A stretch of DNA of 64,000 nt from a virus (IMGVR_UViG_3300025659_000002:64001-128000), one strand, 5' to 3'. Positions 35,844-58,664 are shown, numbered from the stretch's first letter. Numbers and translations: made by a program. Notes: generated by a model not told the origin, from the sequence alone.

Positions 35844-35850
35844 ATAAAAC

Positions 35851-35879: not shown

Positions 35880-35884
35880 AAAAA

Positions 35885-36064
35885 GTGAAACTAATTAGAG
35901 AAGAAACAATAAATAAGGATTACCTCATTATAGAGCAAATAAAAAGAGATGTGGAGAAACTTGATCAAGAAAAACGTCAAAACCCATTTTCTAAAGTTTC
36001 TACCTTGATTAATTCTAAAGTAAAATCTCTAAAAAGTTTGCTTTTTGAAACAGTAACAATTTAG
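35885..36064 (+). CDS. Small hypothetical protein (59 aa)
   Basis: GTG 35885 to TAG 36062-36064; fills the gap between promoter and next gene. Confidence 0.5.
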   Translation: MKLIREETINKDYLIIEQIKRDVEKLDQEKRQNPFSKVSTLINSKVKSLKSLLFETVTI

Positions 36065-36065
36065 T

Positions 36066-37767: not shown

Positions 37768-37786
37768 TTAAATGGAGGATATCTAA

Positions 37787-39418: not shown

Positions 39419-39430
39419 GAGGAATAAATA

Positions 39431-40066
39431 ATGGCAACACGAACTTTAAATGATTGGGATTTTGACGTAGAGCACGTACAAGATATTACTAGCGGAAGTG
39501 ATTTTTTATCTTCCGAATCGGTAGTTATTTGTGCGGGACCGCCTTCAGTAACTAAGGCAGCCGCTTTTAATGAATCTCATTTAATACCAATAGGAGTGGT
39601 GCAAAATGCACAAGTTAGTCAAAGTAAACAACTTCAACAATTTTTTGAAGTAGGTTCAAGAGAGCCGTTCTTTATCCCAGGTAGAACATTTGTTAATGCC
39701 TCATTAGGCAGAGTAATGTTTGACGGGCCATCAGTAATGAAGGCTCTGTATATGCAGGGAACTGCAGCTGACGTGCCGACGGATTTGGAAGGATTAACTA
39801 CAGCCGATTTTGCAAATGCACCATCTAACCCTCAAGGGGGGTCTGGAAATTTTTATATAAATTTATCGGCTAAATTCTTTAATAACCCTTTAGGTTTAGC
39901 ATTTTTATTAAATGATATGGACGACAATAGATATGGCGGTTTTTATTTAGAAAATTGTTTTATCCAGCAACATACACTTAACGTGGCAAGTCAACAAACT
40001 GTATTGTTTGAAAATGTATCTATAAGATGTTCTCGATTAGTCCCTCTTAATTGGAAAGAAGCATAA
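39431..40066 (+). CDS. Tail tube protein (211 aa)
   Basis: Follows sheath; IGVVQNAQVSQSKQLQQFFEVGS..PFFIPGRT; AGGAGG SD. Confidence 0.75.
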   Translation: MATRTLNDWDFDVEHVQDITSGSDFLSSESVVICAGPPSVTKAAAFNESHLIPIGVVQNAQVSQSKQLQQFFEVGSREPFFIPGRTFVNASLGRVMFDGPSVMKALYMQGTAADVPTDLEGLTTADFANAPSNPQGGSGNFYINLSAKFFNNPLGLAFLLNDMDDNRYGGFYLENCFIQQHTLNVASQQTVLFENVSIRCSRLVPLNWKEA

Positions 40067-40136: not shown

Positions 40137-40484
40137 CTATTTAGCCCACTTTCCTTTATTTACAATCCTAGAAATTATACTATAAACTCCTAAATCTAAA
40201 AAAGCATCTTCTACAGATTCGTTTTGTGGAGACCTTCCGGTCTTTACCACAAGATTCAATAATCGTTGCATTTTATCATTCATACGAATAATTATTCCAG
40301 TAGTAGACAACCTTTTATCTTCGTCTGTTTTTAAGTTGGTTCCCATACTGATATTGTTTGGACCATAATCCATTTGTTTCCTACAAAAGATAGCAAAATC
40401 TTCAGCCTGTATAGCTTCAAATTCTTTCATCATTTCTGGATATTCTTTTTTACAGAACTCAATTGGATTTATAATGTCTGTCAT
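40137..40484 (-). CDS. DUF1599 / nucleotide-modification-associated domain 1-like protein
   Basis: RKQMDYG...GIIIRMNDKMQRL...ESVEDAFLDL.VY; likely start ATG 40484. Confidence 0.65.
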   Translation of the reverse strand: MTDIINPIEFCKKEYPEMMKEFEAIQAEDFAIFCRKQMDYGPNNISMGTNLKTDEDKRLSTTGIIIRMNDKMQRLLNLVVKTGRSPQNESVEDAFLDLGVYSIISRIVNKGKWAK

Positions 40485-40497
40485 TTTTATATATTGA

Positions 40498-42324
40498 TTA
40501 GTGCTTCCAATGGCCACTAACGTGAGAGTCTACTTCCATAGACACGTCGGGGGCATAATAGTTAAAGGCTAGTATCATTAATTTTTCTACCATCTTTGCT
40601 ACATCGTCTGCATCATCTTCGTGTACTTCTAATAAGATTTCATCGTGTACTACGTTTACTAGTCTAGCATCGTAGTCTTTTTTGTCTATTTCTGCTTTGA
40701 GTAAACAAAGAGCTTTTTTTGTAGTACTAGCTCCTGCTCCCTGAAAAGGGAGATTTTTTGCTTCATTCATAGCGTGAGCAACTTCACCTTTATTATCCCA
40801 ATCTACATGAGACAAGTCTACACGGCGCTTATCTAATGGCGAATAATTATATTTATTTTTTGTGGCGTCAGCTACTAAATTATCAAGTGTATATTTTATC
40901 TTTGGAAATGTTTTAAAATATAATTTGATAAGTTTTTTTGCGCCATCTAGGTCTAATCCTAAATTTTTCCCTAGTTTAGTAGGGCCAATTCCGTAAATTA
41001 AACCGAAGTTGATGGCCTTAGTGTTCCCACGTAGTGCCAACATTTCTTTTCCTTTATCACATAAAAAATCAGTTTCCGGATCTTTCTTCCACACCTTTCC
41101 AGTATCTGGATCTAGAAAATCATCATAAGGTCTATTATATATAAGACTTGCTGAATAACTATGTAGGTCCATGCCCTGCTCAAGTGCATAAGTAAATTTA
41201 GGTTCTTTGCTTAACTGCGTTAATAATCTCAATTCTTGCCCAGAAAAGTCAGCGGCAATTATTTTATAATCAGAGTGTTGAGATGTAAATGCCGCTCTAT
41301 AAACAGCCTCTTTAGGAATATTCATTAAGTTCGGCTCTTTCCCAGCCATTCTTCCTGTTTTTGCTCCAAGTTGAACAAACCTCGCATGAATACGTTTATC
41401 TAATTTATGTACGTTTTCATTTAAGAAGGCTTCTCCATAAGTGGTTACCCTTTTAGTAGCCTGTCTATACTCTAGAAGCGCGTCGATGACTTCATGTCTT
41501 ACACTTTTAAGAGTATTTACATTCGTGTTTTCTAAGGGTTTTCCTATAATTTTTTCTAATATAGGTTTTATTTGTTGATGGGAATTATAATTGATAATGG
41601 GTTCTCTAAATAAATCTACAGAACAATGTGGTATGAAGAAATTATCTAAATCTTTTTTAGCTTTGGCGGCTGTATCAGCTGCTAAGGTTTTAAGAGCTAA
41701 CCATTTAGGTTTGTCTACATAAATTCCATTTAGTTCCATATCTCCCAACACTCTTGCAGTATCATATTCTAAAGTACCCAATTCTTTCATACCACGTTGC
41801 GCTAATAAATGTTGAATTTTAGCATATAATGGTATCAAATACTTAACGTCTAATCCAGCATACTCTATTTGGTCGTCGTCAAATTTATCCCCAAATTCCA
41901 TTTCTGAAAAACTTTTTTGAGAACTTTTATCTAAATCGACGCCGAGAAACTTTTTAGCCACTTTAGCTAAACCGCTTCCAATATTTCGCCCTTGGACTAA
42001 TAGTTGGTGTCCTAACATAGTACAATGTATATTTTCTATTTCTATCTTAAAATTAGATTTTGTAAATTGATATTCAAATTTGCTATTATGAGCTATCTTT
42101 CTTGTATCCGGTAATTTTAACCAATCTAATAATTTGAAAATATGTGTTCTAAGTTTATAAACATCATAAACATACTGTCTATATTCATTACCTACTTGTA
42201 TAAGTAGTACTTTATCAGTAAGTGGATCTAATCCTGTAGTTTCAAGATCATAGCCTACTCCTTGTAAGGATTTTAAGTATTCAAGAGATTTATCTAGCTG
42301 TTTGCTAGTAGTTATGTATGTCAT
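40498..42324 (-). CDS. polA: Family A DNA polymerase with 3'-5' exonuclease (608 aa)
   Basis: Exo I DLETTG; TGRMAGKEPNLMNIP; motif A DFSGQELR; motif B KAINFGLIYG; motif C VHDEI. Confidence 0.95.
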   Translation of the reverse strand: MTYITTSKQLDKSLEYLKSLQGVGYDLETTGLDPLTDKVLLIQVGNEYRQYVYDVYKLRTHIFKLLDWLKLPDTRKIAHNSKFEYQFTKSNFKIEIENIHCTMLGHQLLVQGRNIGSGLAKVAKKFLGVDLDKSSQKSFSEMEFGDKFDDDQIEYAGLDVKYLIPLYAKIQHLLAQRGMKELGTLEYDTARVLGDMELNGIYVDKPKWLALKTLAADTAAKAKKDLDNFFIPHCSVDLFREPIINYNSHQQIKPILEKIIGKPLENTNVNTLKSVRHEVIDALLEYRQATKRVTTYGEAFLNENVHKLDKRIHARFVQLGAKTGRMAGKEPNLMNIPKEAVYRAAFTSQHSDYKIIAADFSGQELRLLTQLSKEPKFTYALEQGMDLHSYSASLIYNRPYDDFLDPDTGKVWKKDPETDFLCDKGKEMLALRGNTKAINFGLIYGIGPTKLGKNLGLDLDGAKKLIKLYFKTFPKIKYTLDNLVADATKNKYNYSPLDKRRVDLSHVDWDNKGEVAHAMNEAKNLPFQGAGASTTKKALCLLKAEIDKKDYDARLVNVVHDEILLEVHEDDADDVAKMVEKLMILAFNYYAPDVSMEVDSHVSGHWKH

Positions 42325-43120
42325 CCATAAAATACCTGAGTTTATCAGCTCTCCAAGTTCGTCTTAATTTGTTGAGAGCTTGTTCTTTAATTTGACGAAT
42401 ACGTTCCCTAGTTAAGCCTAAATCAATACCAATATCTCTAAGAGTATAAGGTCTAATATGCCCAATACCAAAATACATTTTCAATATTTGTTTTTCTCTA
42501 GCAGGAAAACTGCTTATAACGTCATCGAATTCCTCTCTGAATTCATCAATAAGATGTTCTAATTCTACTGAAGAGGCTATTGCTGGAATTACGTTTGTAA
42601 GCGTATCGTCGTTATCTGTGTGGGGTTCGTCAAGATGAATAACTGTATAGCTATATTTTAAATCCTGTAAAGCGTTAGGATTATCGACTAATTCTGCTAT
42701 TTCATCATAACTAGGAACACGCTGTAATTTCGTTTCAAGGTATTCTCTAGCTTTTGTTATCTTTGTAACATTTGTTATTTTGTTTAAAGGTAGACGAATC
42801 ATTTTTGCATGCTCATGAATGGAAGCCATAATAGCTTGACGAATCCACCATACAGCGTAAGTAATAAATTTGAAATTACGAGAAGTATCAAATTTAGAAA
42901 AAGCTTTAACTAATCCTAAGTTTCCTTCTGCAATTAAGTCTTCTAAACTAATACCTTGATTCTGATATTCTTTTGCAACTTTTACAACAAATCTTAGATT
43001 TGAGGTTATTACTGTATCATAAGCTTTTCTATCACCAGCCTTTGCTAAGCGCAAGAGTTCTGCTTCTTCTCCCTTTAATAAGGGGTTGTGATTTTGGATT
43101 TCTTTTAAGTAACGTTTCAT
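42305..43120 (-). CDS. Sigma-70 family RNA polymerase sigma factor, RpoD/SigA-like, lacking region 1.1 (271 aa)
   Basis: NLRFVVKVAKEY, DLIAEGNLGL, FKFITYAVWWIRQAI, MIRLP, TRERIRQI. Confidence 0.92.
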   Translation of the reverse strand: MKRYLKEIQNHNPLLKGEEAELLRLAKAGDRKAYDTVITSNLRFVVKVAKEYQNQGISLEDLIAEGNLGLVKAFSKFDTSRNFKFITYAVWWIRQAIMASIHEHAKMIRLPLNKITNVTKITKAREYLETKLQRVPSYDEIAELVDNPNALQDLKYSYTVIHLDEPHTDNDDTLTNVIPAIASSVELEHLIDEFREEFDDVISSFPAREKQILKMYFGIGHIRPYTLRDIGIDLGLTRERIRQIKEQALNKLRRTWRADKLRYFMDDIHNY

Positions 43121-43827
43121 ATATCTAGTATCACATAAGACTGATTATTTTTTGAAAAGTTCCCCACACCGTGTACCTTTGTAGTATTTATACTTCCTTC
43201 ATATTTTTTATGATGGTGTGCGAAAACATAATGTTTTGGTTTTAAAACTTCGACTAATTGTCTTAAATGTTTACTACCTTCATCATGATTAGTTTTTTTA
43301 GAAAAAATTAAATCTGAAGCAGCTTGGTGAGTTACTAAGACGTCAATAGAAGTATCGTCAGTGGTGGCTCGTATACTTAATTCCTTAATTTGTAAAGAAG
43401 TATAAAAGCGTTTATTTCGATCGACTAATTTTTTCTCCGGCCAGTGAAATTTAATAGGAGACCATATTCCTCCTAAAACACCAATCCGTACATCACAAAT
43501 GGTATGAACTCTAGCTTGAGGTAAATAGTGTATATTTAGAGAGTCTAAATACCAATGAGTTAGATTATTAAAATCTTCATGGTTACCCATAATAAAATAT
43601 ATAGGTATATCAAATCTCTTTAAATTTTGAGCAGTTAAATCTTGTATTATTTTTTTTACATTCCAAAAATTATGACGTACTTCTTTAGAACAGGCAGCCT
43701 CTTCCGATCGATATAACCCAAAATCTCCGCCCTGCACTATTGCATCTACTTTATGTTTTTTTACAAAAGAATATACATTATCAATGTTAGAGTGTACATC
43801 TCCTATAAAAGCTATTCTTGCGGCCAT
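43117..43827 (-). CDS. Calcineurin-like metallophosphoesterase (236 aa; ends at 43105 if the terminal TGA is read through)
   Basis: GDVH, GGDFG, GNHE, VTHQ and FAHHH motifs. Confidence 0.85.
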   Translation of the reverse strand: MAARIAFIGDVHSNIDNVYSFVKKHKVDAIVQGGDFGLYRSEEAACSKEVRHNFWNVKKIIQDLTAQNLKRFDIPIYFIMGNHEDFNNLTHWYLDSLNIHYLPQARVHTICDVRIGVLGGIWSPIKFHWPEKKLVDRNKRFYTSLQIKELSIRATTDDTSIDVLVTHQAASDLIFSKKTNHDEGSKHLRQLVEVLKPKHYVFAHHHKKYEGSINTTKVHGVGNFSKNNQSYVILDI

Positions 43828-44099
43828 GGTTCACTATCTCCTTGAAAAATTACTGTTTGCCCTTTTAAACTTACTTCCACTGTTTGCCCATTTTTTAGGG
43901 CATTACATACCCAACATAGGGGAACTATACATTTCTTAGAGTTATCCCAATTATGAAACACTCTATCATATTTTTCTTTTTCAATGTCTCCTATCTGGTT
44001 TTGGGTATTCCAAATTTCTCCCAAGTCTTTACTCTGCCTACGTTGCTGTCTAAGATGTTGATCGCCGTGCGGTGCGGTAGTGTTTATATTATGACTCAT
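43812..44099 (-). CDS. Hypothetical protein (95 aa)
   Basis: Intact ORF, TAATG-coupled to the ThiF gene; C-x4-C-x2-C motif. Confidence 0.55.
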   Translation of the reverse strand: MSHNINTTAPHGDQHLRQQRRQSKDLGEIWNTQNQIGDIEKEKYDRVFHNWDNSKKCIVPLCWVCNALKNGQTVEVSLKGQTVIFQGDSEPWPQE

Positions 44100-44686
44100 T
44101 AGAATATATAAATAAACCTAGCAGAATTTACTACGTCACGGGTCCAATTTAAAATAAATTGAGCACCAATTTGACCAATAATTCTATTTCCACCTTGGAC
44201 TATGCCTGCCTCTAATTCATAGGCTAATTGACAACTTCCATTTTCTACTTTTTCTGGCAAAGTTTTTAGCATATCATCTAATGTATTAGTTGGATGCTTA
44301 GTAAAAGCAGCTATGGAGCGGCCCTCACTTCTTAAATCTATCCAATATACTTCTGGGTTTTTCTCTGCAAAGCGAAACAATAGTTCTCTAAAAGCAGTAT
44401 TATCTACAGCGCTTACTATGCAATCGTATCCTGTTAGCTGTTCTTCTGTAAGTATGTTTTCAGTAATGGCTGAAAACCCGTATTTTACTTCAAGACATTC
44501 TGCTTTATTATCCATTATATCTTCAGTTTCATAAGTAGTATACGGTAAATTTTTACTTTCAACAGTATCTTCATCTGCAAAGTAAAATAAAGTCTTATGA
44601 AATTGATTGTGTTTATTATAGTGATCTATATCTGGGGCTATCCAAGAGCCTATCCCACCACCACCTACTATTAATATTTTTTTCAT
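44099..44686 (-). CDS. ThiF/MoeB/E1-like adenylyltransferase (195 aa)
   Basis: IVGGGGIGS, ADEDTVESKNL, SAVDN..FR, and GSCQ candidate catalytic Cys. Confidence 0.85.
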   Translation of the reverse strand: MKKILIVGGGGIGSWIAPDIDHYNKHNQFHKTLFYFADEDTVESKNLPYTTYETEDIMDNKAECLEVKYGFSAITENILTEEQLTGYDCIVSAVDNTAFRELLFRFAEKNPEVYWIDLRSEGRSIAAFTKHPTNTLDDMLKTLPEKVENGSCQLAYELEAGIVQGGNRIIGQIGAQFILNWTRDVVNSARFIYIF

Positions 44687-45120
44687 TAGTTTTGTATAAT
44701 TATTTGTGCTTCGTTAAATTCTCTGATTACACCATCAAAATACCAAGCTGTCATACTCCTATACATGGGAGAGAAGATAATATATACTCCTTCATAACCT
44801 GCATAATTTAAATCAGTGGTAGAAGGTATTGGGTGGTGTCTTGGGTGTGTATGTGCTATACCTACAAGATCATAATCTGCATCATCATGCATATGAGTAG
44901 TTTTGCTCAACACATTGAATAAATCTTCAGGTTTTGGAGTATAATACACTTCGGCTTTAGAAGATATTTCTGTGTTTCGCATTCTCATATATTCCATACA
45001 ATGCCAATAGGTATCGCTGGATTTACTACCCAAGAGAGCCCCACAGATTTCTACTGTGGGGTCCTCTAAGGCGTGATTGTAAATATCAGCAATAACACTA
45101 AAATTACAAACTAAAATCAT
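44686..45120 (-). CDS. JAB/MPN+ (M67) metalloprotease (144 aa)
   Basis: EICGALLG and HTHP...PSTTD, the complete JAMM motif. Confidence 0.88.
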   Translation of the reverse strand: MILVCNFSVIADIYNHALEDPTVEICGALLGSKSSDTYWHCMEYMRMRNTEISSKAEVYYTPKPEDLFNVLSKTTHMHDDADYDLVGIAHTHPRHHPIPSTTDLNYAGYEGVYIIFSPMYRSMTAWYFDGVIREFNEAQIIIQN

Positions 45121-45899
45121 TATATGAACTCGATTAAGCAGCGTTTAGGAATTCTTGCTTTTTTACAAATCTGCTCTAGAGGAGCAGGAGCTTTTCCAAA
45201 ACGTTTCCAAAAATTAGCCTTAATGAAATTATAATCTTTAAATGTAATCCAGTTTTTTCCTGGAGGGCCATATAAAGCCCATATTAAACCATTAGGCATA
45301 TCTAGTTCTCTGGAAATTGTGTCAAGATTGAGGTTAACCCAATGCATGGCATATATACCAGGGCTGCCAGTTCTTACAGGCACTGCTTTAGAGCTATCTG
45401 AAGGGCGATGACATGGGTGTATTCTGTCTAGAAGACCTCTACCTCTTACAATGTCGTTTGCAACCTTTGAAAATCTTCCTAGATATTTATTCATTTCAGT
45501 TCGAACAGTATTAGGAGTTATATTCAAATTCATATCTCTTAAATTTTGCATAATATGTTCAAAATGTACTCCGTTAGCGAACTGCTGGTGAACATAATCT
45601 TTTGCCCATAATTGGCCATTTACCGGAAGTCCCCAACGCTTGTGTTCTATCCATTGTATCCCTGCGGCTTTAAAAAGTCCTCGCAAAGTTTCTGAAGTAG
45701 TGTTTAACCTTTCGGCTAAATCAGATTGAGTAGTTCCTATCTGTACAATAAAAGGAGCAGAACCCTCAGGAAATGAAGGTTCCGCTGCTTTAGTAAGTTC
45801 TAATCTTTTACCAGCTCGTCTTAAAGTTGGAATGAAATTATCAGCAGTAGTAATGTTTACTCCGCTACCTCGGCTTGTTGTCGTATTCTGTTTTCTCAT
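45120..45899 (-). CDS. Hypothetical protein (259 aa), possible HTH segment
   Basis: Intact ORF between Ubl and JAB; TQSDLAERLNTTSETLRGLF looks HTH-like. Confidence 0.55.
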   Translation of the reverse strand: MRKQNTTTSRGSGVNITTADNFIPTLRRAGKRLELTKAAEPSFPEGSAPFIVQIGTTQSDLAERLNTTSETLRGLFKAAGIQWIEHKRWGLPVNGQLWAKDYVHQQFANGVHFEHIMQNLRDMNLNITPNTVRTEMNKYLGRFSKVANDIVRGRGLLDRIHPCHRPSDSSKAVPVRTGSPGIYAMHWVNLNLDTISRELDMPNGLIWALYGPPGKNWITFKDYNFIKANFWKRFGKAPAPLEQICKKARIPKRCLIEFI

Positions 45900-45915
45900 T
45901 TGTCTTATTCCTAAG

Positions 45916-46146
45916 TTATCCGCCAGCTAAAGCGTTTGTTAGTACAATATCAGTTCCGATTACATCTGCAACACTAAGCCCATTAGGACTACGAAATTGT
46001 TGATCGATAAATAACCATTTTGATTCATTGTTTGTTTTTTCTTTTATCATGTCGATTGCGTCGAGAGGAGTCCCATACCAATCATCGTGACCACTTTCAG
46101 ATATAATCTGTACGTGAACCTGAAGGTTGTCTTCTTTTTTATTCAT
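45916..46146 (-). CDS. Ubiquitin-like/ThiS-MoaD-like beta-grasp protein ending in Gly-Gly (76 aa)
   Basis: C-terminus IVLTNALAGG-stop; size and beta-beta-alpha-beta pattern; near E1 and JAB genes. Confidence 0.75.
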   Translation of the reverse strand: MNKKEDNLQVHVQIISESGHDDWYGTPLDAIDMIKEKTNNESKWLFIDQQFRSPNGLSVADVIGTDIVLTNALAGG

Positions 46147-46162
46147 TATAATTTTGTGATTA

Positions 46163-48214
46163 TTATAGAGTTGTTATTTGCTGAGCGACAAGATTGTCGT
46201 TATGTAATGCAAATAGTCTATTTACTAATTTGTCTTTTCCTACTTGTGCTGTGGACTTATCCACAATACAAACATAATTTCCAGACGGGTATCTATATAC
46301 CTGAGAACCGTCTGCACTAACTACATAAGTATCTAATTTACCTTTAACAAGATATCCGGTAATAGTTTTTCCGCTTATATTATAAGCATCGATTTTGATA
46401 TTAAAACGTTTTTCTGTGTCAGCTAATAATTTTTTACTTTTTTCAACTGCCTCATTAAATTCTCGTTTTGCACCATCCAGTAAGCCTTTTATATCAGAGC
46501 TACTTACATTTTGAACAATGGTACCATCTAAGAGAGCGCTAACAATTTGTAGAACATTCACATAATTTTTAAATCTTATAAGTCTCTGAGTGTCAGATAC
46601 TCTAAATTCTTGTTTATTTAAAACTAAATAGTTTATATTTTTTTGTCGTCTAATTGGAAATTTAAAGGAAAGCATGCCGCCATCTAAGGGGTCTTTTGCT
46701 TTTACATCAACACCATTTTGAAGATACCCATGTATTTCTAAAGAGCAGCTGCTAACTGAGTGTAAAAAATAATCATAGTCTTCTTGTGAAGTAAAGCAAA
46801 GCGCCCTCTGAAGGCATTCTGCAACTTCGCTAGCATTTACTCTATGTTCATTTATATATAAACGTTTGCTTACTACCCCATTCGCATTAGTAGTGTATTG
46901 TGCGTCAAGATTAAAGGAAACTTCTCCAATTATACCAGAAGAAGCGTCTGACTGAGCTTCATCCTCTACGAATCTATCTAAAATTCTTTCAAAATTTAAA
47001 TCTTGAATGTCGGACCAATACCATCTTAATTCACTTATTAAAGTTTTAGTCCAGCCTTCATTTGGCTTAAATATTCGTTGGTTTTCATAGGTTATTTCTG
47101 TAGAGGAAATTGTCATTCCGTTTAAAGAGATTGGTTTAGTATCTAATTTATCTAAACGAGCAGTAAATTTTTTACTCAGATTGGTTTTAGCTACTTCTTC
47201 ATTTTCTTCTCTTAATTTAAGTTTATCAGCTTTTTTTACAACTTGTTGTATGTCTCTACTTTCTAAAAGCATAGGAAGTTCCCCAGCTTTTGAAGCGGAC
47301 GCCCACAAGCTTTTTAAAATTGTTTCAGTAGGGAGCACGGGGTGATCATCAGTAAATACTAATGTTTGAACACGACCCGCAGCGTCTCCATCCCTAAACA
47401 ATATTCTACCGATGTCCATGTAATTGTATAATTCGTGATCGGGAGTCAGCATACTTATATAAACTCTATTATTGTATTGATTCCAAGAATTATTATAACT
47501 ATAAGAATTTTTATTACTTTGTTCTACTGTAAATACAACTCGTCTGTTAACGGATTCTAATACAGCGATAACTGCTGCAAATTTCTTTGAAGGGCTACCA
47601 TTATAGAATAAATGTTCAGGATTTACTTCTTTTACAAAAGTAGAGGTTCCTTTGCTATTTAATTCTGATAGAAGCTTAGAGGCTCTTGGCCACAAGTCAA
47701 CTATTGAATTATCGATTACTCCTAGTTCCATATAATTTCCAGAAATCTCAGTATTTATAAAAATATGAGTATATAATTCTTCCCAGAGATTACTAATATT
47801 TTCAAAAACTATATCTGTAAAATTTACAGATAGGCTTCTGAAGAAATTAGAAAGGGCCCCAAAAGAACGTACGGTAGTAAGATCTTCTGGAGCTATTTCT
47901 TTTATTTTAAAGTTATATACGACAAAAAAGTTTTTGTCATTATCTTCTATTTCTGCACCATAGGTTTCTAACGTAAAATTAAGGTCGTCAGAAGTTCGCG
48001 TTGAGTTGTTAAAGTTTCTACCTTCTAAATGACACATAGCTTTGCTAGTTGTCAATTGAAAGGTGATACCTGATAAGGTACCGCTGTGCATTTGAAACTC
48101 TTCACTATTAAACAAGGCGAAGGGTTTGGTACGTAATGTTTCCTGTTGTTCTTCACCAATTCCTAACTCATAAAGTGAGTTTAGAGCTGGTATTATTTTC
48201 AGTTTTACTTGCAT
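46163..48214 (-). CDS. Large hypothetical protein (683 aa) in the Ubl cluster
   Basis: Intact ORF; central coiled coil; C-terminal SGNYVCIVD. Confidence 0.7.
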   Translation of the reverse strand: MQVKLKIIPALNSLYELGIGEEQQETLRTKPFALFNSEEFQMHSGTLSGITFQLTTSKAMCHLEGRNFNNSTRTSDDLNFTLETYGAEIEDNDKNFFVVYNFKIKEIAPEDLTTVRSFGALSNFFRSLSVNFTDIVFENISNLWEELYTHIFINTEISGNYMELGVIDNSIVDLWPRASKLLSELNSKGTSTFVKEVNPEHLFYNGSPSKKFAAVIAVLESVNRRVVFTVEQSNKNSYSYNNSWNQYNNRVYISMLTPDHELYNYMDIGRILFRDGDAAGRVQTLVFTDDHPVLPTETILKSLWASASKAGELPMLLESRDIQQVVKKADKLKLREENEEVAKTNLSKKFTARLDKLDTKPISLNGMTISSTEITYENQRIFKPNEGWTKTLISELRWYWSDIQDLNFERILDRFVEDEAQSDASSGIIGEVSFNLDAQYTTNANGVVSKRLYINEHRVNASEVAECLQRALCFTSQEDYDYFLHSVSSCSLEIHGYLQNGVDVKAKDPLDGGMLSFKFPIRRQKNINYLVLNKQEFRVSDTQRLIRFKNYVNVLQIVSALLDGTIVQNVSSSDIKGLLDGAKREFNEAVEKSKKLLADTEKRFNIKIDAYNISGKTITGYLVKGKLDTYVVSADGSQVYRYPSGNYVCIVDKSTAQVGKDKLVNRLFALHNDNLVAQQITTL

Positions 48215-48219
48215 GTGTT

Positions 48220-48636
48220 TTAATCAAAAAGTCCGGTTTTTTCTGTTAATTCATTGGATTCGGAAGTACTCTCCTTCATGTCACATATAGTTAACACTAG
48301 GAAGTCTTTTGGGTCTGGATATAAATTTACTTCTTTACCTTGTAAGCCTTTCAGCGTACCGGCGTCGTAATAATCTAAAACTTTTGCTAAAGTGCTACCT
48401 GACGATAGCTCACCTTTCGAGTCGAGTGTAAACCATAATCCCTTTATCCCTTGGGACTGTTTATGGTCTTCTACCCAACAATCAGATACTTGAAAAGTCC
48501 TACGACCATCATTAACTGAAAGTATAATTTTATCCGCAGTTTCCCCATCTCTGGTGGATACTGTTGTTTTTTTCACTTCTTCTACTGTTCCCTGTCGTAA
48601 CTTGCTTCCGACTCCTAAATCTAAAAAGTCATTCAT
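48220..48636 (-). CDS. Possible single-stranded DNA-binding protein (138 aa)
   Basis: Beta-rich body and acidic tail ending TGLFD; function call is weak. Confidence 0.4.
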   Translation of the reverse strand: MNDFLDLGVGSKLRQGTVEEVKKTTVSTRDGETADKIILSVNDGRRTFQVSDCWVEDHKQSQGIKGLWFTLDSKGELSSGSTLAKVLDYYDAGTLKGLQGKEVNLYPDPKDFLVLTICDMKESTSESNELTEKTGLFD

Positions 48637-48671
48637 TGTTTTCTTATTTGGTTGATATTCTTTAATGTCTT

Positions 48672-48700
48672 AATCTAGTAACTTGCTTCCGTTGTGTGAA
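48672..48700 (-). promoter_or_regulatory. Possible sigma-70 promoter TTCACA-N17-TAGATT for the 48636-40137 block
   Basis: In the intergenic gap, downstream of the RNR terminator; one mismatch in the -35 hexamer, two in the -10. Confidence 0.45.
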
Positions 48701-48722
48701 GACTGAATACCATCTTCTACAT

Positions 48723-48750
48723 AAAAAAAAGGTTAGGATGGCCCTAACCT
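48723..48750 (-). terminator. Rho-independent terminator after the RNR gene
   Basis: GGTTAGG-ATGGC-CCTAACC hairpin with A8 on the + strand (U8 on -). Confidence 0.8.
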
Positions 48751-48775
48751 CTTCTTAATTCTTATACCAAAAAAT

Positions 48776-50764
48776 CTAAATTTCGCAGCTGTCGTTACTA
48801 CAAAATTTTTCTACTTCGGCATTGTTTCCCTTAACTTTCTTGAAAGATAAGGATTTTATGTTTTTAATTAATTTATTATAAGCATCTTCCGTTATTTTTT
48901 CGTAAGGCATTTGCGGGTAAGCACCTCCTTCTAATTTTGGAAGAAATGAAACAGATTTTAATTTGTATTGAAATATATCTAAGGCCTGCTCTATGTATGG
49001 GCCTTCCGTTTCCGGGTCAAATGTGATAGTAACAGAGACAGAGTTATCTGCCCAGTACTTTTGCATAAATGCAGCCATCTCTAACTGTTCCCACATTGAT
49101 ACATCTTCTAAGGTTCTTATGTGCTCTCCAACGTCGACTGGAACTTCTACTACTGACGTAGTTGCTTCTTGCCCAAAGGCTTTTTCTACAACATATCCTG
49201 CCTTTCGTAAAGGTTCTAATAAAGGACTATCATTAGCTAAGCGTACACGTCTAATATAAAAACGGCTTTCTGGGTAATGCTGTCCAGGGGTAGCGCCTAC
49301 TAGTATAGAAATGGAACCACTAGGTTTCATTGTACTTAGGCGTATAGACCTAGGAATAGCAAACCAGTCTGAGTATGATTCATCATAGTTTTTTAGGGCT
49401 GCGTATCCCTCATTTAGCCAATGCTTTAAAGTATCTATAGAATTGTTTGCTAAGAATTGAGCTACGGCACCTACGCCTGTACCTACTCTTCTATTTCTTA
49501 ACATAATTTGATTGGTTTCAGGCCAATGGGTATCAAGTAATGTTATTGTTTTAGAGTATAAATAGGCATATTTTAGAGAGCGTATAAAGTCTTCAAGAGT
49601 GTCATGTTTGCTTAAGAACACCTCACATAAATTGCATTTTTCTCCGCTTTCTAAAAATATTTCACCACAAGGGTTAGTGCCCTTAGTTTTCGTATCAGCT
49701 CTTAAACCACTGTTGGTTTCACCAAAACGTCCATTTGCATGGGCATTCTCTGGCCATAATAATCCGGGTTCTCCATTTATTCTTATTCTTTCAGCAATCT
49801 CTTTGTAGTTCATACCTACTGTGCCTATCACGGAATTGTTACTTGCCCAGCCATATTCTATACGATCTGGATTTTTCTCATAATTTTTTAAATCCAAAAA
49901 TTCGTCTATAGGTAAGCCTGCAAGTAAAATAGCGGATCTTCTTACGTTTCCAGCTACTACAGTTTTGCCAATAAAATTAAATATATCAGCGATAGTTCTA
50001 ATAGTAATAAGGGATCCAGCATTATGTGATAAAGTTTTCTCTATCATAATATGCATCTCTTTTAGAGGGCCTGATCCAGAGGATACCCCTCCAAAGGTTT
50101 TTATAGGTAAGCCTTCTGCTCTAATTTCAGTATAATCAAAGATAGGTTTAGGTATTTTATAAAAGAAAGATTTTATTAATATGTCTAAACTTTCTACCCA
50201 ACCTTCCCTAGAATCAGGAATAACAAAAACTTCAGTACCTTCTAATTGTCCCTTTACTTCAACAGTGCCCGCACCTAATAAGTCGGCCCCAATACCAACA
50301 CCGCACATAAGCATATCCATAGCAAATGTAAAAGGTTTACTGGGATCTTGTTTCATAGTTTCAGTACTAATAAAACTACAATTAAATAATGCAGGTGTTA
50401 ATTTTTTCTTTTCAATTATATCGGTACCTTGCGCATACAACCCTCTTCCTGGTGCTAAAATTTTCATAGACCACATTCTGTAGTACATTTCCTGTGCAGA
50501 AAATTGAGCTTTTTGAGGAACCCAAGCTAGTCTAAGTGATTCTATCCATCTTTTTTGAATGTTATAGGTACCTTCAACAACTCTTCTGATGGTTTCCCAC
50601 CATTCCTCGTTTTTGCCATTCTCCTTAATTCTAGAGTATGTACGTTTGTAAACTAACTCACCTAAACCGTTAAATCCAAATGGAGGTTTTTTTCTTTTGT
50701 ATTTGTCTATAAATGTTTCAGTTAGTCTAAAAGGTACATAATCTTCCATTTGTTTTTTCTCCAT
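48776..50764 (-). CDS. nrdJ: Class II (B12-dependent) ribonucleotide reductase, monomeric RTPR type (662 aa)
   Basis: PGRGL, NCSF, GVGIG, VAGNVRRSA, TNPCGE...CNL.E, KPSGSIS and C-terminal FCSNDSC. Confidence 0.93.
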   Translation of the reverse strand: MEKKQMEDYVPFRLTETFIDKYKRKKPPFGFNGLGELVYKRTYSRIKENGKNEEWWETIRRVVEGTYNIQKRWIESLRLAWVPQKAQFSAQEMYYRMWSMKILAPGRGLYAQGTDIIEKKKLTPALFNCSFISTETMKQDPSKPFTFAMDMLMCGVGIGADLLGAGTVEVKGQLEGTEVFVIPDSREGWVESLDILIKSFFYKIPKPIFDYTEIRAEGLPIKTFGGVSSGSGPLKEMHIMIEKTLSHNAGSLITIRTIADIFNFIGKTVVAGNVRRSAILLAGLPIDEFLDLKNYEKNPDRIEYGWASNNSVIGTVGMNYKEIAERIRINGEPGLLWPENAHANGRFGETNSGLRADTKTKGTNPCGEIFLESGEKCNLCEVFLSKHDTLEDFIRSLKYAYLYSKTITLLDTHWPETNQIMLRNRRVGTGVGAVAQFLANNSIDTLKHWLNEGYAALKNYDESYSDWFAIPRSIRLSTMKPSGSISILVGATPGQHYPESRFYIRRVRLANDSPLLEPLRKAGYVVEKAFGQEATTSVVEVPVDVGEHIRTLEDVSMWEQLEMAAFMQKYWADNSVSVTITFDPETEGPYIEQALDIFQYKLKSVSFLPKLEGGAYPQMPYEKITEDAYNKLIKNIKSLSFKKVKGNNAEVEKFCSNDSCEI

Positions 50765-51207
50765 TAAGAAGGTTGTTCAGAATCCGAAGAACCGAAACCT
50801 TTATCCCCACGAGCGGTTTCAGTAAGTTCTTCTTCCTCTCCTAACTCTTCTAGCTGTATAAGCTGTCGTCTTAAAATAACCATTTGAGCAATTTTGTCAC
50901 CAGGCTCTATGGTGTAAGGGCGATATCCAGTGTTTTTAAACATGACAGCTATCTCGCCTCGATAGTCAGAGTCTATGACTCCGGCAGTCACTTTTAAAGC
51001 ATTTTGTAGGCTAAAGCCGCTTCTGTCCCAAATTTTACCAAAGTAAGAGGTGGGTATTTCAAAGGATAGTCCGGTGTGAACCGCTTTTGTTGTATTTGCT
51101 GGAATAACAATTTTATGATCGGCATATAAGTCCATGCCAGCTGCGCCATCATAGGCCATTGTAGGGGACTTAGCTGATTTAGTCAGCTTTTTAAATCTAA
51201 TATTCAT
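50764..51207 (-). CDS. dut: Trimeric dUTPase (147 aa)
   Basis: AGMDL, RSG, GVIDSDYRGE, IAQ and RGDKGFGSS motifs. Confidence 0.95.
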   Translation of the reverse strand: MNIRFKKLTKSAKSPTMAYDGAAGMDLYADHKIVIPANTTKAVHTGLSFEIPTSYFGKIWDRSGFSLQNALKVTAGVIDSDYRGEIAVMFKNTGYRPYTIEPGDKIAQMVILRRQLIQLEELGEEEELTETARGDKGFGSSDSEQPS

Positions 51208-51546
51208 TTAGTTTGTAGTGGTTTCTGGTGTAATTTTATTTTCAATAATCTGTATATTATTAATAAGTGTTATGGAGTCTATAGAAAGCATAGTAGGGGT
51301 TTTAAAATCGGCAGTAAGAGCCGTTATATCTATATTTTGGAAATCGGTTTCACCGAAAGGGCGAAGTACAATAGCATCATCTATCCCCTTCACTAGTTCA
51401 ATAATTCCTACATAAGATTCTCTATGTAAACCTTCTCGAACAATAAAGCATTTTGGGCCATAAATATTTATAAAGGCGCTTATACTATCTTTTGAGAACA
51501 TAATTTTTTTACCTTGGTTAAGTAATGTTCCGGCTCTGTAAGCCAT
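51208..51546 (-). CDS. Hypothetical protein (start uncertain)
   Basis: Track ORF between recU and dut; overlaps the recU 3' end, so the true start may be downstream. Confidence 0.5.
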   Translation of the reverse strand: MAYRAGTLLNQGKKIMFSKDSISAFINIYGPKCFIVREGLHRESYVGIIELVKGIDDAIVLRPFGETDFQNIDITALTADFKTPTMLSIDSITLINNIQIIENKITPETTTN

Positions 51547-51956
51547 TCATTTTTAAAATCTTTAAAGGGTATGGAACGTCTACCTTCATCATCATACCAG
51601 TATTTAGTAATAATGCTTAAAGGCGTAATATATACCTTAGTTGGATGTATTTTTTTGAAATGAATTAAGAAAAAAGCTATTCCACCTAATTCCTTAACCA
51701 TCTCTAAATACAATAATTGGTGTTGGTGTATATTAGCTAAAGGAAATCTAGTTTTTATTTCAGTTTCCTTCGCATCATAAGCAATAAATTTACCACCACC
51801 AATTAGTCCGGCATAATCTACAGTTGAGGTTTGTGCAATTAATCCTCGTTGTGTATAAACAATAGGCACTGGTATCTTTAAAATCAAGGCTTTTCTATCT
51901 CGCCTTAAATTTAAATTAATAGCATTTGCTGTCTTTTCTAATTGATTAACTTTCAT
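51480..51956 (-). CDS. recU: Holliday junction resolvase RecU (158 aa)
   Basis: STVDYAG...FIAYDAKET...IHQHQL.YL...GGIAFFLIHF. Confidence 0.88.
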   Translation of the reverse strand: MKVNQLEKTANAINLNLRRDRKALILKIPVPIVYTQRGLIAQTSTVDYAGLIGGGKFIAYDAKETEIKTRFPLANIHQHQLLYLEMVKELGGIAFFLIHFKKIHPTKVYITPLSIITKYWYDDEGRRSIPFKDFKNEWLTEPEHYLTKVKKLCSQKIV

Positions 51957-52632
51957 TATGAGAACCGCCTAAATATTTAGAATATCCTATTTGTTCTTCT
52001 AACTTCCAATTTAAATTAGCAGTTATATACTCAATTATATGTTGAGGAATTTTTTTAAAGAATTCTTCTTTTAAATAAAAATCTTTTTTATTAAAAGTTT
52101 CAATACTTATAGCACTTTCTAAACAATATTTTTCTAAAATTATTGTAGAATCCCAAATAGCTAGATTGTATTTTATAGCTAAAAAATCTAATTCAATTTT
52201 TGGATTCTCCAACAACTCTTCATATTTTATAAATTCTATATTTTTTACCACTTTCCTTAATAATAAAAATAAAGCTATTTTTTCTTCTCTGCATTTAAAA
52301 ATATTGTCAAATGTCTCTACTATCTTTTGTTCCGTAATTATATCATAAGACCTAAAATCATTAGATAAAAAATCTTCCCAGCTAACCATAGCTAATTCAG
52401 GTAAATGGTGAGGGTGTTCAAACATACCTAATAGCCAGGAATAAGGATTCTTGTGTATTATTAAAAATAAAGTGTCTTCAGGAATTGGTATTAAAGAGTT
52501 ATAATTTGGCAATCCATGTTTCCAGCCGTGATTAAAAACTATTTCAACCTCTCTGATATTATCACGTATAAGATACTCTAACCAGGTAGTTCCTGAATGC
52601 CTTTCCCCAAATAGCTGTATTTTAGAAATCAT
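51946..52632 (-). CDS. Sulfotransferase-like P-loop protein (228 aa)
   Basis: GERHSGTTWL, GWKH and KNPYSWL resemble PAPS-binding motifs. Confidence 0.55.
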   Translation of the reverse strand: MISKIQLFGERHSGTTWLEYLIRDNIREVEIVFNHGWKHGLPNYNSLIPIPEDTLFLIIHKNPYSWLLGMFEHPHHLPELAMVSWEDFLSNDFRSYDIITEQKIVETFDNIFKCREEKIALFLLLRKVVKNIEFIKYEELLENPKIELDFLAIKYNLAIWDSTIILEKYCLESAISIETFNKKDFYLKEEFFKKIPQHIIEYITANLNWKLEEQIGYSKYLGGSHNES

Positions 52633-53456
52633 TAGGATTCAAATGGATTGCAACTAATCATTTCTTTAATTTGATCTTGTATAGAAGGTATTTCATCTAT
52701 TATAGGTTTTTGAATATCTTTACTATTTACCAAAGATCTATCACAACCTGGGGTTGCTTCAAAGAGATCCACTTTTATATCTAAGTTATACTCGGCGATT
52801 AGCAACGTTAGTAACTGGTATTTGGAAATGATTTCAGGAGAAAATATATGTCTAACTCCTTTCCAGTAAGTTTCCTTAACAATAATATCCCTAATAATTT
52901 TAGCTAGTTGCCAACAAGTAACTCCGTTCCAAAAATGATTTGTGTATCCAAATACTTTAGAACCCTCTTGAGTTTTTAACCACTCTATTAGGGAACGTTG
53001 GTTTCCTTCTCGCTCTTCACCAATTAAAGAAGTTCTGATTACAGTAATATTTTCAGGCTCTCCTAAAGCCTTTGTTTTTCCATAATCATCGATAGCGTCT
53101 TTAACATCTACCTCTGAGTACTTACCTTTTTTTCCTGAAAATACGCCATCGGTAGTAATATGTATTACATTGACTTCAGTAGTTTCTGCTAAATCACTTA
53201 ATAGATGTGGAAATATACTATTAACCTGTATAGTCTCATATAAGCCCCTAACTTGCATTCTTGGCCCAATGACCCCGGCACAGTTTATTATGACGTCCTC
53301 GGGGCCAATTTGCTCCAATTCTAGCCATTTAAGAACTGTAGCAGGCCTACATAAATCGAATTCTTCGGAACCCAAGGGTACTAGGCCTTTAATTCCTATT
53401 AACGCGGAGCTTACATAACGGCCTAACATGCCATTAGCTCCGAATAGATACATCAT
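52632..53456 (-). CDS. RmlD-like NDP-4-keto-sugar reductase (274 aa)
   Basis: FGANGMLG, INCAG, HITTDGVFSG, YGKTKALGE, RTS.IG. Confidence 0.85.
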   Translation of the reverse strand: MMYLFGANGMLGRYVSSALIGIKGLVPLGSEEFDLCRPATVLKWLELEQIGPEDVIINCAGVIGPRMQVRGLYETIQVNSIFPHLLSDLAETTEVNVIHITTDGVFSGKKGKYSEVDVKDAIDDYGKTKALGEPENITVIRTSLIGEEREGNQRSLIEWLKTQEGSKVFGYTNHFWNGVTCWQLAKIIRDIIVKETYWKGVRHIFSPEIISKYQLLTLLIAEYNLDIKVDLFEATPGCDRSLVNSKDIQKPIIDEIPSIQDQIKEMISCNPFES

Positions 53457-54397
53457 TATATTGTCTCCTTTAAAATTGTTTCTAAGTCTTTTTTTGACAC
53501 GGCAAAATCCTTACTGTTATATTCATTATTTTTTAATAAAACTTCATCGTTATAAGTATTTTTATAATGCATTAAATAATATTTGCCAGGATCAGCCACT
53601 CTCCCTAATTCTTCTTTAGCAATCATAACCTCATGAATTTTTTCTGAAATACGAGGTTTTCCTATTTTGTATTTTAAACCAAAATTTTCTTTAAAATAAT
53701 CAAACATATCCTTAACTAAAAAACTTTTTAATTTAGGAATAATATTAAACCCAGTTAATGAAAAACCTATAGGACGGCTAAGCGCGTAATCTATTAAATT
53801 TACAGCTTCAGCTACTGAAATCATAAATCTAGTCATGTCCGCACTATACAATGTAAGTGTATATTCGTTAGAAATGGCGTTCTTTATTAAAGGAATAAGA
53901 CTTCCTGTAGAACCTAACACATTGCCATAGATGGCCGTGTTTAAAACACAGTCTCCAAGAGAGTTTTCAGAATTTACTATGAACAATTCTCCTGCTACAA
54001 ATTTCATAGAACCATATAAGGTGGTTGCTGCTCTACTTTTGTCTGTAGAAATAAAGCAAGAATCTATATGATTAGTTTCTGCAGCGGCTCTACTGTTAAG
54101 AGCTCCATTAATAATTGTTTTGACGGCTTCACTTGGATTTTGGTCAACGGCTTCTATTTGCTTCATACTAGCCGCAAAGATAGCTTTGGAATGACCCATA
54201 GAGGCTTCTATCAGCCTTTCCTTATCATTTACGTCACCTATGACACATTTAATATTTGGGAATTGTTTTTTTAAATAATAGTGCTTTGCCTCATCACGGC
54301 TATATACGGTAATCCTATTAGTTCCATAATATTCTTTAACTAACGCAGTTCCTAAAAACCCCGCTCCTCCAGTAATAAAAATACGTTCATCAAACAT
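53456..54397 (-). CDS. PseB/CapD-like UDP-GlcNAc 4,6-dehydratase (313 aa)
   Basis: ITGGAGFLG, SRDEAKH, AASMKQI, STDK, YGSMK, YGNVLGSTGS, MTRF; start ATG 54397. Confidence 0.85.
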   Translation of the reverse strand: MFDERIFITGGAGFLGTALVKEYYGTNRITVYSRDEAKHYYLKKQFPNIKCVIGDVNDKERLIEASMGHSKAIFAASMKQIEAVDQNPSEAVKTIINGALNSRAAAETNHIDSCFISTDKSRAATTLYGSMKFVAGELFIVNSENSLGDCVLNTAIYGNVLGSTGSLIPLIKNAISNEYTLTLYSADMTRFMISVAEAVNLIDYALSRPIGFSLTGFNIIPKLKSFLVKDMFDYFKENFGLKYKIGKPRISEKIHEVMIAKEELGRVADPGKYYLMHYKNTYNDEVLLKNNEYNSKDFAVSKKDLETILKETI

Positions 54398-55581
54398 TAG
54401 GAAGACCTCTCTCGTATTGACAATCGAGGTAAAGGTTTTAACCATTTACCTAAAAACCACGAGTTCTTATATACAATTTCATCTATAAAATTATAGGCAA
54501 GTACTAGAATATGATCTGGATTATACCCACGTAGAAAATCATTATCTAAGATTGGTATATGAGTTCCAGGTGTGAGTTTATTTTGTCGTAATGGAGAGTC
54601 ATCTATAATAAATGGAATCTCATCTTCTGTAATACCCATAGTGGATAAGTATATATTAGCTTGACCACTAGCTCCATAAGCTACTATTGTTTCATTTTTC
54701 TCTTTAATATTATGCAATGTTTGCTTTATATCTGTTTTAAGATTTACTAACTTCTTTTTAAAAACTTTAATTTTATACTCAGTCAAAGCTGGAGGAAAAA
54801 AGTAAAGGGGGGTTGCCGGCTTAGTTCTACTAAATATAGCATGTAAAGATGTTCCATGTATACTAATATACTCATAAGAGTCTAAGTATAATCCATGTTT
54901 ATCCATTAGAGCAGTTAAAGACTCTATTGTATAATAAAATAAATGCTCATGATAGAAAAATGGAAAGCACATCTCATCTAGTAAATAATGAAAATCCTGC
55001 ACTTCTATAATTAGTTTGCCGTCAGGACTTAATAAGGTATCTATACCATCTATAACACTTTCCAAATCTTCCATATGGGCAAAATTGTTAGCGGAAAATA
55101 TAACATCCATAAGCCCAAAATCATTTTTTATTTTAGTAGCTACTTCGTTATCAAAATAGTTATTAACTAGTGTAACTCCTTTAGGAACAGAGTCTAAAGC
55201 AACATTTGATGGGTCTACATTTATTACTAAATGATTCCCTAATTCCATTAGTCTTTCTCCTAGTGGGCAAGAGTTTCCTCCTATTTCTAATATACTAGAG
55301 GACGAAGCTAATTCGTTATGTAAACTTTCGGCTTCCGCATAAAAGTGATCTTTTAAAGTTTTAGTAGCGTGTGTATTATAAAAATAGTTATCGAATAGCT
55401 CATGTTTTGGTATCCTATCTTCTTTTAAAACTTGAGCTAATCCACAATCTTTACAATATAAGATTCTAAGAGGTTTTAAAACGTCGTCTTTAATATCTTC
55501 TAAGAAATTGCCTGCTATAGGTGCATGATCCATAGAAAATATAATATCGATGTTAGTTGAGTTGCATATAGCGCATTTCAT
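54397..55581 (-). CDS. NDP-hexose C-methyltransferase-like protein (394 aa)
   Basis: N-terminal CxxC and CKDCGL zinc motif, LEIG.N, NNFAH, YHEHLFYY, YGA and ILVLAYNF.DEI. Confidence 0.85.
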   Translation of the reverse strand: MKCAICNSTNIDIIFSMDHAPIAGNFLEDIKDDVLKPLRILYCKDCGLAQVLKEDRIPKHELFDNYFYNTHATKTLKDHFYAEAESLHNELASSSSILEIGGNSCPLGERLMELGNHLVINVDPSNVALDSVPKGVTLVNNYFDNEVATKIKNDFGLMDVIFSANNFAHMEDLESVIDGIDTLLSPDGKLIIEVQDFHYLLDEMCFPFFYHEHLFYYTIESLTALMDKHGLYLDSYEYISIHGTSLHAIFSRTKPATPLYFFPPALTEYKIKVFKKKLVNLKTDIKQTLHNIKEKNETIVAYGASGQANIYLSTMGITEDEIPFIIDDSPLRQNKLTPGTHIPILDNDFLRGYNPDHILVLAYNFIDEIVYKNSWFLGKWLKPLPRLSIRERSS

Positions 55582-55583: not shown

Positions 55584-57718
<2,135 letters not shown>

Positions 57719-57734
57719 TAGTATTTATTGATTT

Positions 57735-58640: not shown

Positions 58641-58664
58641 ATTACTGTTAACCACACTCATAAA

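Follow-up and report, generated by a model that had tools for sequence, protein, structure and literature searches.

A marine tailed phage with two readings of TGA and a tRNA(UCA) as putative decoder

Why does one block of genes in an AT-rich phage genome lack sense TGA completely when the genes next to it use this codon for tryptophan? The question is raised by the replication block at 40137-55581 (minus strand) of a 64,000-nucleotide window, the whole stretch of DNA that was analyzed, which corresponds to bases 64001-128000 of the linear, 163,945-bp IMG/VR virus record IMGVR_UViG_3300025659_000002. Coordinates refer to this window unless stated otherwise. The record has a GC content of 36% and a CheckV completeness of 77%. 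We consider it probable (about 0.7) that it belongs to a marine tailed phage of about 214 kb, which reads TGA in two ways, uses a tRNA(UCA) of its own as decoder and tolerates TGA only in genes whose products are needed later.

Distribution of TGA and TGG between the gene blocks

For the recount of the replication block the gene starts were chosen without reference to TGA. On this basis the block comprises 18 genes with 5059 codons, and all 67 Trp codons are TGG, with no sense TGA. The original prediction had counted 19 genes and 69 Trp codons; the exclusive use of TGG was correct and the two numbers had to be lowered. With the TGA share of 0.56 found on the plus strand, the probability of observing none in 67 is 2.5e-24. 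Pfam confirmed PolA, the sigma-70 factor, the metallophosphatase, ThiF, JAB, class II RNR, dUTPase, RecU and three sugar-modifying enzymes within the block. The longest open reading frames (ORFs) obtained with code 4 contain five TGAs, none of them a sense codon: three are located upstream of the likely start of the gene at 46163-48214 and one upstream of the start of the gene at 51946-52632. The fifth, codon 237 of the metallophosphatase gene, is the sole in-frame TGA inside any gene of the block, and it is assigned as the stop codon because it overlaps the ATG of the sigma gene.

A genome-wide count was performed on the 164-kb record, omitting the first 25 and the last 12 codons of each ORF. 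It revealed 7 TGA and 292 TGG in the early-type blocks versus 164 and 141 in the late-type blocks (Fisher p = 1e-51), and frequent use of TGA for Trp was not found in the early genes. The density of out-of-frame TGA is equal in all blocks (22-29 per 1000), and the depletion is therefore frame-specific and not explained by composition. The few TGAs that code-4 ORFs of the minus-strand early-type blocks contain sit among the last codons or ahead of the likely start.

The TGA-free state of this region is also found in a relative with an RNR of 75% identity (L145:1-21983), which is closer than those used for the alignments below. Its syntenic replication block contains 75 TGG and no TGA, whether sense or stop, and the whole replication and glycan block of 28 genes is likewise free of TGA in either role. 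This fits the published route according to which TGA stops are lost prior to recoding. In this relative a LAGLIDADG endonuclease splits PolA, and the glycan genes are unlike those of the present phage.

That the virion and glycan genes depend on TGA, as originally proposed, holds in part. The count for the 1970-aa glycosyltransferase was identical in the recount (Table 1), and sense TGA is present in the genes of TerL (3), the protease (1), bS21 (1), a LamG protein (6) and the sheath (1). The head block and the sheath-tube genes use TGA for only 1 of 11 and 1 of 14 Trp codons, respectively. Among the glycan genes, those of the dehydratase and the glycosyltransferases contain TGA, and the sugar genes at 52632-55581 as well as the DegT gene at 56567-57718 contain none. 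The lysis/tRNA module, located outside the record, consists of 12 genes with 23 TGG and no sense TGA (P = 8e-9), and its last gene stops at TGA. Fibre genes rich in TGA lie directly upstream of this module, including that of a 1301-aa fibre with 15 TGA codons. Taken together, the partition is not simply one of early against virion genes: the head, sheath, tube and lysis genes are likewise TGA-free or nearly so. That TGA is so scarce in the genes of the most abundant virion proteins fits a costly and incomplete suppression in competition with release factor 2 (RF2).

TGA is read as Trp in some blocks and as stop in others

The meaning of the sense TGA codons follows from alignments with related proteins. 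In the GDP-mannose 4,6-dehydratase (55584-56594) the TGA at codon 242 falls on the W of DYVEAMW, which is invariant in three solved structures, and all three TGAs of the terminase gene correspond to invariant or nearly invariant Trp positions across 20 relatives. An alignment with three code-11 relatives placed 30 of 48 TGA positions at W and a further 10 at F, L or Y. TGA therefore stands for Trp and not for Gly, and the TGA codons are derived from TGG. Code 25, in which TGA encodes Gly, is ruled out by all three alignments. Relatives with a TerL of 55-59% identity are translated with table 11 and show a conserved gene order. In addition, contigs from RNA libraries are identical to the DNA at 17 in-frame TGA codons; RNA editing was rejected, with no A-to-G change at any of the 17 covered codons.

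In two marine RNA libraries the genes from the protease to the major head protein (9800-14030, plus strand) reached a word depth of 24-73 in the RNA contigs versus 0-15 for most other sequence, with a flat DNA depth of about 13-18 over the same stretch. As contig depth cannot rank genes, this excess of the head genes was not used as evidence.

Stop codons were counted on the completed genome (see below) using gene calls with table 11. The 191 genes of the TGA-free blocks end with TAA in 136 cases, with TAG in 38 and with TGA in 17. Fourteen of the 17 TGA stops are part of ATGA start/stop overlaps (P = 4e-5 given the base composition), and in 11 of these the ATG begins an ORF of 50 aa or more; two more of the TGA stops are found in GTGA or TTGA. 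Nearly all surviving TGA stops are thus fixed in place by a start codon that overlaps them. Their presence in overlaps indicates that the early genes are translated with TGA as terminator, and together with the lack of sense TGA in the replication block it bears out the proposal that these genes are readable in the standard code.

A recoding of TAG was rejected, since the read-through lengths past TAG stops were equal to the control. The phage does encode an amber-type tRNA (L017:11220-11296:+), which is well formed and has the anticodon CUA and A73, yet TAG closes about 20% of the genes. A phage tmRNA (L017:19421-19792:+; Rfam 85 bits) with the tag peptide GRPAVKLAA was also identified. As a speculation, it may rescue ribosomes which pass the TGA stops of host and early genes while the suppressor is active.

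A tRNA(UCA) gene outside the record and its five-arm family

The original prediction had noted that neither a TGA-reading tRNA nor a release factor lies in the window. This is correct and holds for the whole 164-kb record: among its 12 clear tRNAs is a tRNA-Trp(CCA), and ARAGORN at low thresholds yielded noise instead of a TGA-reading tRNA. The tRNA array reaches the left end of the record, and the missing part of the genome was therefore sought by looking up end-proximal proteins in public assemblies. The same phage was found there, with 99.99% identity over 11.5 kb at the left end of the record and 100% identity over 5.3 kb at the right end. All overlaps used for walking were 100% identical, and the circle was closed in five steps at 213,557 bp, leaving 46 kb (23% of the genome) outside the record. 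The phage is present in marine metagenomes of 7 studies. A search for close relatives by exact peptide words in IMG/VR found none.

The predicted suppressor was located in this 23% of the genome as a tRNA(UCA) that resembles tRNA-Trp. Concerning the other candidates sought in the remaining genome, RF1, RF2 and TrpRS, no genes were found: RF-1, PCRF and class Ib synthetase domains are absent from the record, and the gene tables of the missing 46 kb list no Pfam family of this kind. The sequence of the tRNA(UCA) is identical in five assemblies. It is the sole tRNA on the plus strand, the other 28 found by ARAGORN being all on the minus strand, and it is flanked by a 76-aa gene, which follows a holin gene, and by an Amidase_2 endolysin gene.

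The tRNA(UCA) has a 7/5 cloverleaf fold and G73, and its CCA end is encoded. Within the genome it is closest to the phage tRNA-Trp(CCA), with 59 of 73 positions identical, similar acceptor and T arms and, apart from C34U, a common anticodon-arm core CGGTCTNCAAAACCG. As in bacterial tRNA-Trp, there is G73, a 1-72 pair of the kind A1-U72 or G1-U72, and an anticodon arm of the Trp type in which positions 35 and 36 are C and A. These alignments suggest a derivation from tRNA-Trp and point to Trp as the identity of the tRNA. The additional length of about 22 nt forms a hairpin at the variable position, and its loop holds UCCAA.

Rfam assigns the tRNA(UCA) to tRNA-Sec with 48.5 bits at a threshold of 47. 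The phage tRNA-Ser reaches 50.3 bits with the same model, and the label therefore reflects only the long variable arm. A tRNA-Sec identity was rejected on the basis of the 7/5 fold, which is not 8/5 (or 9/4), the nonspecific match at the threshold and the position of TGA at Trp sites. There is also no sign of Hirsh-type suppression by the phage tRNA-Trp(CCA), which has the U11-G24 pair in the D stem and an anticodon stem of 5 bp; compared with E. coli, U11-G24 is the wild-type pair.

Pattern scans of IMG/VR revealed that the extra hairpin is not restricted to this phage. Out of 90 unique loci that combine a UCA arm with a long variable region, 52 carry CCA in the loop of the variable arm, and in 37 of the 52 this loop has 7 nt and is closed by at least 3 bp. 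In its strict form the design is thus represented in IMG/VR by at least 37 unique tRNAs. The loop reads N-U-C-C-A-A-A in 34 of these 37, with 27 different stem sequences. One of the scans demanded TCCAA, so that the loop motif is partly selected there, but neither the broader scan with the 90 loci nor the first scan (4 of 4 long forms) did so. Using 32 members, RNAalifold predicted five arms. The pairs of the variable arm covary, with one pair occurring as CG in 10, GC in 9, UA in 6 and AU in 4 of the 32 members. G73 (alignment column 103) is present in 31 of 32, and the 1-72 pair is A-U in 20 and G-U in 10. Many of the family loci gain long ORFs only with TGA read-through, the coverage of the locus rising for example from 0.19 to 0.79 or from 0.37 to 0.80.

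The five-arm architecture is possibly a new variant of tRNA. Literature searches on tRNAs with a second anticodon-like arm found nothing relevant, by which novelty is not proven. A long variable arm, a UCA anticodon and G73 are shared with type II tRNAs, tRNA-Sec and the allo-tRNAs of Mukai et al. 2017 (PMC5389517). The 7/5 fold, the Trp-like arms and the loop N-U-C-C-A-A-A, which equals the anticodon loop of tRNA-Trp, distinguish the present tRNA from allo-tRNAs and tRNA-Sec, and the accessible part of that publication describes no such tRNA. In E. coli opal suppressors the single exchange C34U is enough for tRNA-Trp to read TGA, and TrpRS continues to charge it with Trp (cited in Borges et al., bioRxiv 10.1101/2021.08.26.457843). 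Unlike these laboratory suppressors with their short variable loop, the phage tRNA adds the hairpin, and this copy of the Trp anticodon loop also sets it apart from the phage suppressors described by Borges et al.

As to the function of the hairpin, we can offer only a tentative and rather doubtful proposal: it could be a functional copy of the anticodon stem-loop of tRNA-Trp, which shows CCA as identity element to the TrpRS of a standard-code host or blocks SerRS, so that the UCA tRNA would be charged with Trp without a phage synthetase. Borges et al. named the charging of suppressors by host synthetases as an open question; their search recovered TGA suppressors from only 35% of code-4 phages, and they suspected that it had missed non-canonical ones. 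If the proposal is true, the hairpin would answer this question and define a new five-arm tRNA class that marks TGA-recoded phages. If the arm directs charging, a single RNA gene would suffice for a phage to change the code of its host, and the arm would provide a compact natural part for the engineering of UGA decoding. The decoder is for us the more interesting result: it belongs to a widespread group of tRNAs which standard tools label as tRNA-Sec and of which many members lie beside TGA-recoded genes.

Several other tRNA genes of the genome are irregular. An extra tRNA (L006:13590-13661:-, record 33590-33661) with 58.7 bits in Infernal was missed by ARAGORN; it has the loop AUAUUAA (AUU) and a bulged acceptor stem. 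At L005:3602-3749:- and L011:12398-12571:+, two adjacent tRNA-like genes have anticodon loops of 6 nt or 8 nt, and extra variable arms give the tRNA-Thr and the tRNA-His an unusual length of 85 nt and 88 nt, respectively. Irregular tRNA clusters of phages were described by Mukai et al. 2017 (PMC5389517), who reported unusually long tRNA-Ser and tRNA-His, and the present genes resemble them; a long tRNA-His is thus common to both, and the present phage has a long tRNA-Thr as well.

Table 1. Positions and codon counts of the features discussed in the text.
Feature	Position	Strand	Content	TGA / TGG
Virion/late block	3..40066	+	39 ORFs; plus-strand products bS21, large terminase, prohead protease, major head protein, collagen-like fibres, LamG paralogues, tail sheath	95 / 76
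Large terminase TerL	6531..8069	+		TGA at codons 208, 238, 384
Head-morphogenesis sub-block	8122..14017	+	protease and major head protein included	1 / 10 (P = 0.002 at late share)
Multidomain glycosyltransferase	16487..22399	+	1970 aa; GT1, PIG-L, GT9	23 / 9
258-aa protein, tail sheath, putative tube protein	36991..40066	+		1 / 13 (P = 0.0002)
TGA-free block	40137..55581	-	in transcription order: C-methyltransferase, Polysacc_synt_2, RmlD-like, unknown, RecU, unknown, dUTPase, class II RNR, Ubl/JAB/ThiF cluster, metallophosphatase, sigma-70 factor, PolA, 126-aa ORF	
Phage sigma-70 family factor	42305..43120	-	regions 2, 3, 4	without TGA
ATGA overlap	43117..43120	-	metallophosphatase TGA stop (43117-43119) overlaps sigma ATG (43118-43120)	
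Motif copy GGTATAAG(AA)	48761..48768	-		
TGA-using glycan genes	55584..63535	-	GDP-mannose 4,6-dehydratase (3 TGA), DegT (0), epimerase (0), unknown, methyltransferase-like, GT11, two GT2, asparagine-synthase-like; block runs on to about 66239, beyond the window end	17 / 18 in total
tRNA(UCA)	L028:5471-5567:-	-	97 nt; strand as given for L028, plus strand of the phage; same sequence at L020 19426-19522, minus; about 41 kb past the right end of the window in the completed genome	
Missing 46 kb			16 further ordinary tRNAs, tRNA(CUA), tmRNA, RNA polymerase beta and beta-prime homologues, reverse transcriptase, glycosyltransferases, lysis module	
Further TGA-free genes			replication, nucleotide metabolism, NAD salvage, tRNA arrays, many small minus-strand genes, plus-strand lysis module	

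Explanations of the partition and comparison with known systems

In the explanation that we prefer, which agrees in essence with the original interpretation, the TGA-free modules would be translatable by an unmodified host with the standard code, and most of the packaging, neck, tail-fibre and glycan genes would yield a full-length protein only if TGA is read as Trp. The decoder would be the phage tRNA(UCA), presumably charged by the host TrpRS and competing with the host RF2. Changes from TGG to TGA, driven by AT pressure, would be tolerated only in genes whose products are needed after the tRNA has become abundant, and TGA would be purged from genes needed before. It would be purged as well from the most abundant virion proteins (capsid, sheath and tube), where inefficient suppression would be costly. 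The split would then follow the order of expression and may have a regulatory purpose. Indirect pointers to a host with the standard code are the TGA stops in ATGA overlaps, the code-11 relatives and the marine habitat.

The phage has its own sigma factor and RNA polymerase genes alongside two classes of promoters. A promoter-like motif GGTATAAGAA, often found after a T-run and ACCTTAAA, occurs in 19 copies outside the collagen-like repeats, all on the minus strand; 18 of these are located in early-type regions and one opposite the coding region of TerL. The plus-strand units, including the lysis/tRNA module and the RNA polymerase gene, carry TTGACT-N17-TATATT-like sites. The two gene sets thus seem to use different promoters. 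The phage sigma-70 factor is a candidate for a transcriptional switch of the plus-strand units.

Several observations weigh against this explanation. The recoded glycan block (record 119584-130239) is on the early strand, with a TGA-free replication block on either side, and abuts their same-strand genes with gaps of 0-2 bp, so that the limits of the partition do not coincide with obvious transcription units. In the published model for gut phages the lysis genes are recoded, which they are not here. The module with the tRNA(UCA) shares its sigma-70-like promoter type with the other plus-strand units, and the tRNA may be made together with the TGA-bearing mRNAs and not before them. A long variable arm and G73, as present in the tRNA(UCA), would favour SerRS in bacteria. 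Finally, cultured phages gave only matches below 30% identity, hence no host was inferred. A Pacearchaeota label on one TerL match is probably a binning error.

Alternatively, the split may be a by-product: the suppressor would make the drift from TGG to TGA tolerable wherever a partial read-through is affordable, and the pattern would record tolerance, determined by expression level, dosage and length, and would not be a timing device. We regard this as possible but rather unlikely. It agrees with the low use of TGA for the most abundant late proteins (head 1/11, sheath-tube 1/14), with the TGA-free state of the lysis genes, whose timing matters most, with the enrichment of TGA in long low-copy proteins (23 in the glycosyltransferase, 15 in the 1301-aa fibre, and the LamG paralogues) and with code-4 and TGA-free genes that abut on one strand without gaps. 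However, the low-copy proteins PolA, primase and helicase have no TGA among dozens of TGG. Abundance alone is insufficient here, and a need for these proteins before the suppressor is available would explain the finding. The blocks are also sharp, as indicated by the genome-wide ratios of 7 to 292 and 164 to 141.

It is very improbable that the phage has a code-4 host, for which TGA is a Trp codon, and that the TGA-free genes are recent imports from standard-code donors or have not yet been ameliorated. The AT-rich genome and the rarity of TGA stops across the phage family are compatible with such a host. On the other hand, TGA closes 17 genes of the TGA-free blocks, nearly all in start/stop overlaps, and these blocks cover over half of the genome, including core syntenic genes common to the relatives. 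The late genes of the relatives have TGG at the sites in question, which makes TGA the derived state. A code-4 host would already supply a tRNA(UCA), yet the phage carries its own, and the avoidance of TGA in abundant late genes suggests competition with RF2. To our knowledge, no abundant free-living marine bacterium uses code 4.

Equally improbable is another rescue of the late-gene TGA, by UGA-to-UGG RNA editing, by selenocysteine or by serine from a tRNA with a long variable arm: the Sec match just over the Rfam threshold and the long arm with G73, features used by SerRS and the Sec pathway, are outweighed by the agreement of RNA and DNA at the 17 codons, by more than 170 TGA codons at Trp or aromatic and not at Ser or Cys positions, by the acceptor stem of 7 bp and T stem of 5 bp in place of 8/5, by the higher Sec score of the tRNA-Ser and by the tRNA-Trp-like acceptor, anticodon and T arms of the tRNA(UCA).

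Reading of TGA by a phage suppressor in a standard-code host is already known as a phenomenon, mainly from phages of the gut, and the present phage is a clean, fully mapped marine example. A model of the proposed timing was available as well: Borges et al. (bioRxiv 10.1101/2021.08.26.457843) described phages, among them the Agate and Jade clades, that read TGA as Trp in hosts with the standard code, and proposed a switch from the standard to the alternative code in mid-infection. The present phage resembles these phages in TGA at Trp sites, recoded structural genes, replication genes in the standard code, low GC, rare TGA stops, close relatives with the standard code and a phage-encoded TGA suppressor tRNA. 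In contrast to those gut phages it is marine, its capsid, sheath and tube genes avoid TGA and a recoded glycan block lies on the early strand. Its lysis module with 0 sense TGA and 23 TGG differs from the lysis genes of crAss-like and Agate phages, which are biased to the recoded codon, and a phage RF1 or TrpRS as in the code-change operon of the Jade type was not found.

Cellular code-4 organisms, such as the Mollicutes and some insect symbionts, also use TGA for Trp and the UCA anticodon. They have TGA in all genes, lack RF2 and possess a tRNA-Trp(UCA) of ordinary length. Here, TGA is also a stop, and its sense use is confined to certain blocks. For genomes with mixed codes dedicated gene finders exist, e.g. 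Mgcod. Blocks in different codes, with TAG read as Gln or TGA as Trp, are found in gut phages, crAss-like ones included, and code 15 was validated by metaproteomics (Peters et al. 2022, PMC9523058). The combination of standard-code and recoded blocks in one genome and the suppressor tRNAs are common to these and the present phage. Unlike the mixed-code gut phages, which mostly read TAG as Gln, the present phage uses TAG as a stop despite its tRNA(CUA). What is added to the known picture is that TGA is still a working stop, that TGA stops are kept in start overlaps and that the abundant virion and the lysis genes avoid TGA; we therefore argue that suppression competes with the host RF2 and is costly.

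The 46 kb absent from the record contain some further genes of interest. Two ORFs similar to RNA polymerase beta (598 aa) and beta-prime (1026 aa) are located at L018:13910-19876:- (185595-191654, plus strand of the completed genome). Together with two upstream ORFs they occupy one shared frame that is split only by TGA codons, and within this series no Shine-Dalgarno-like sequence was detected ahead of the next start. Read with code 4, the series yields a single protein of 2019 aa with 5 TGA and 9 TGG. The same part of the genome encodes a reverse transcriptase (RVT_1, 296 aa; L019:7836-8726:-) and a 779-aa protein with an intein (L019:2652-4991:-). Inteins also occur in TerL and RNR of several relatives.

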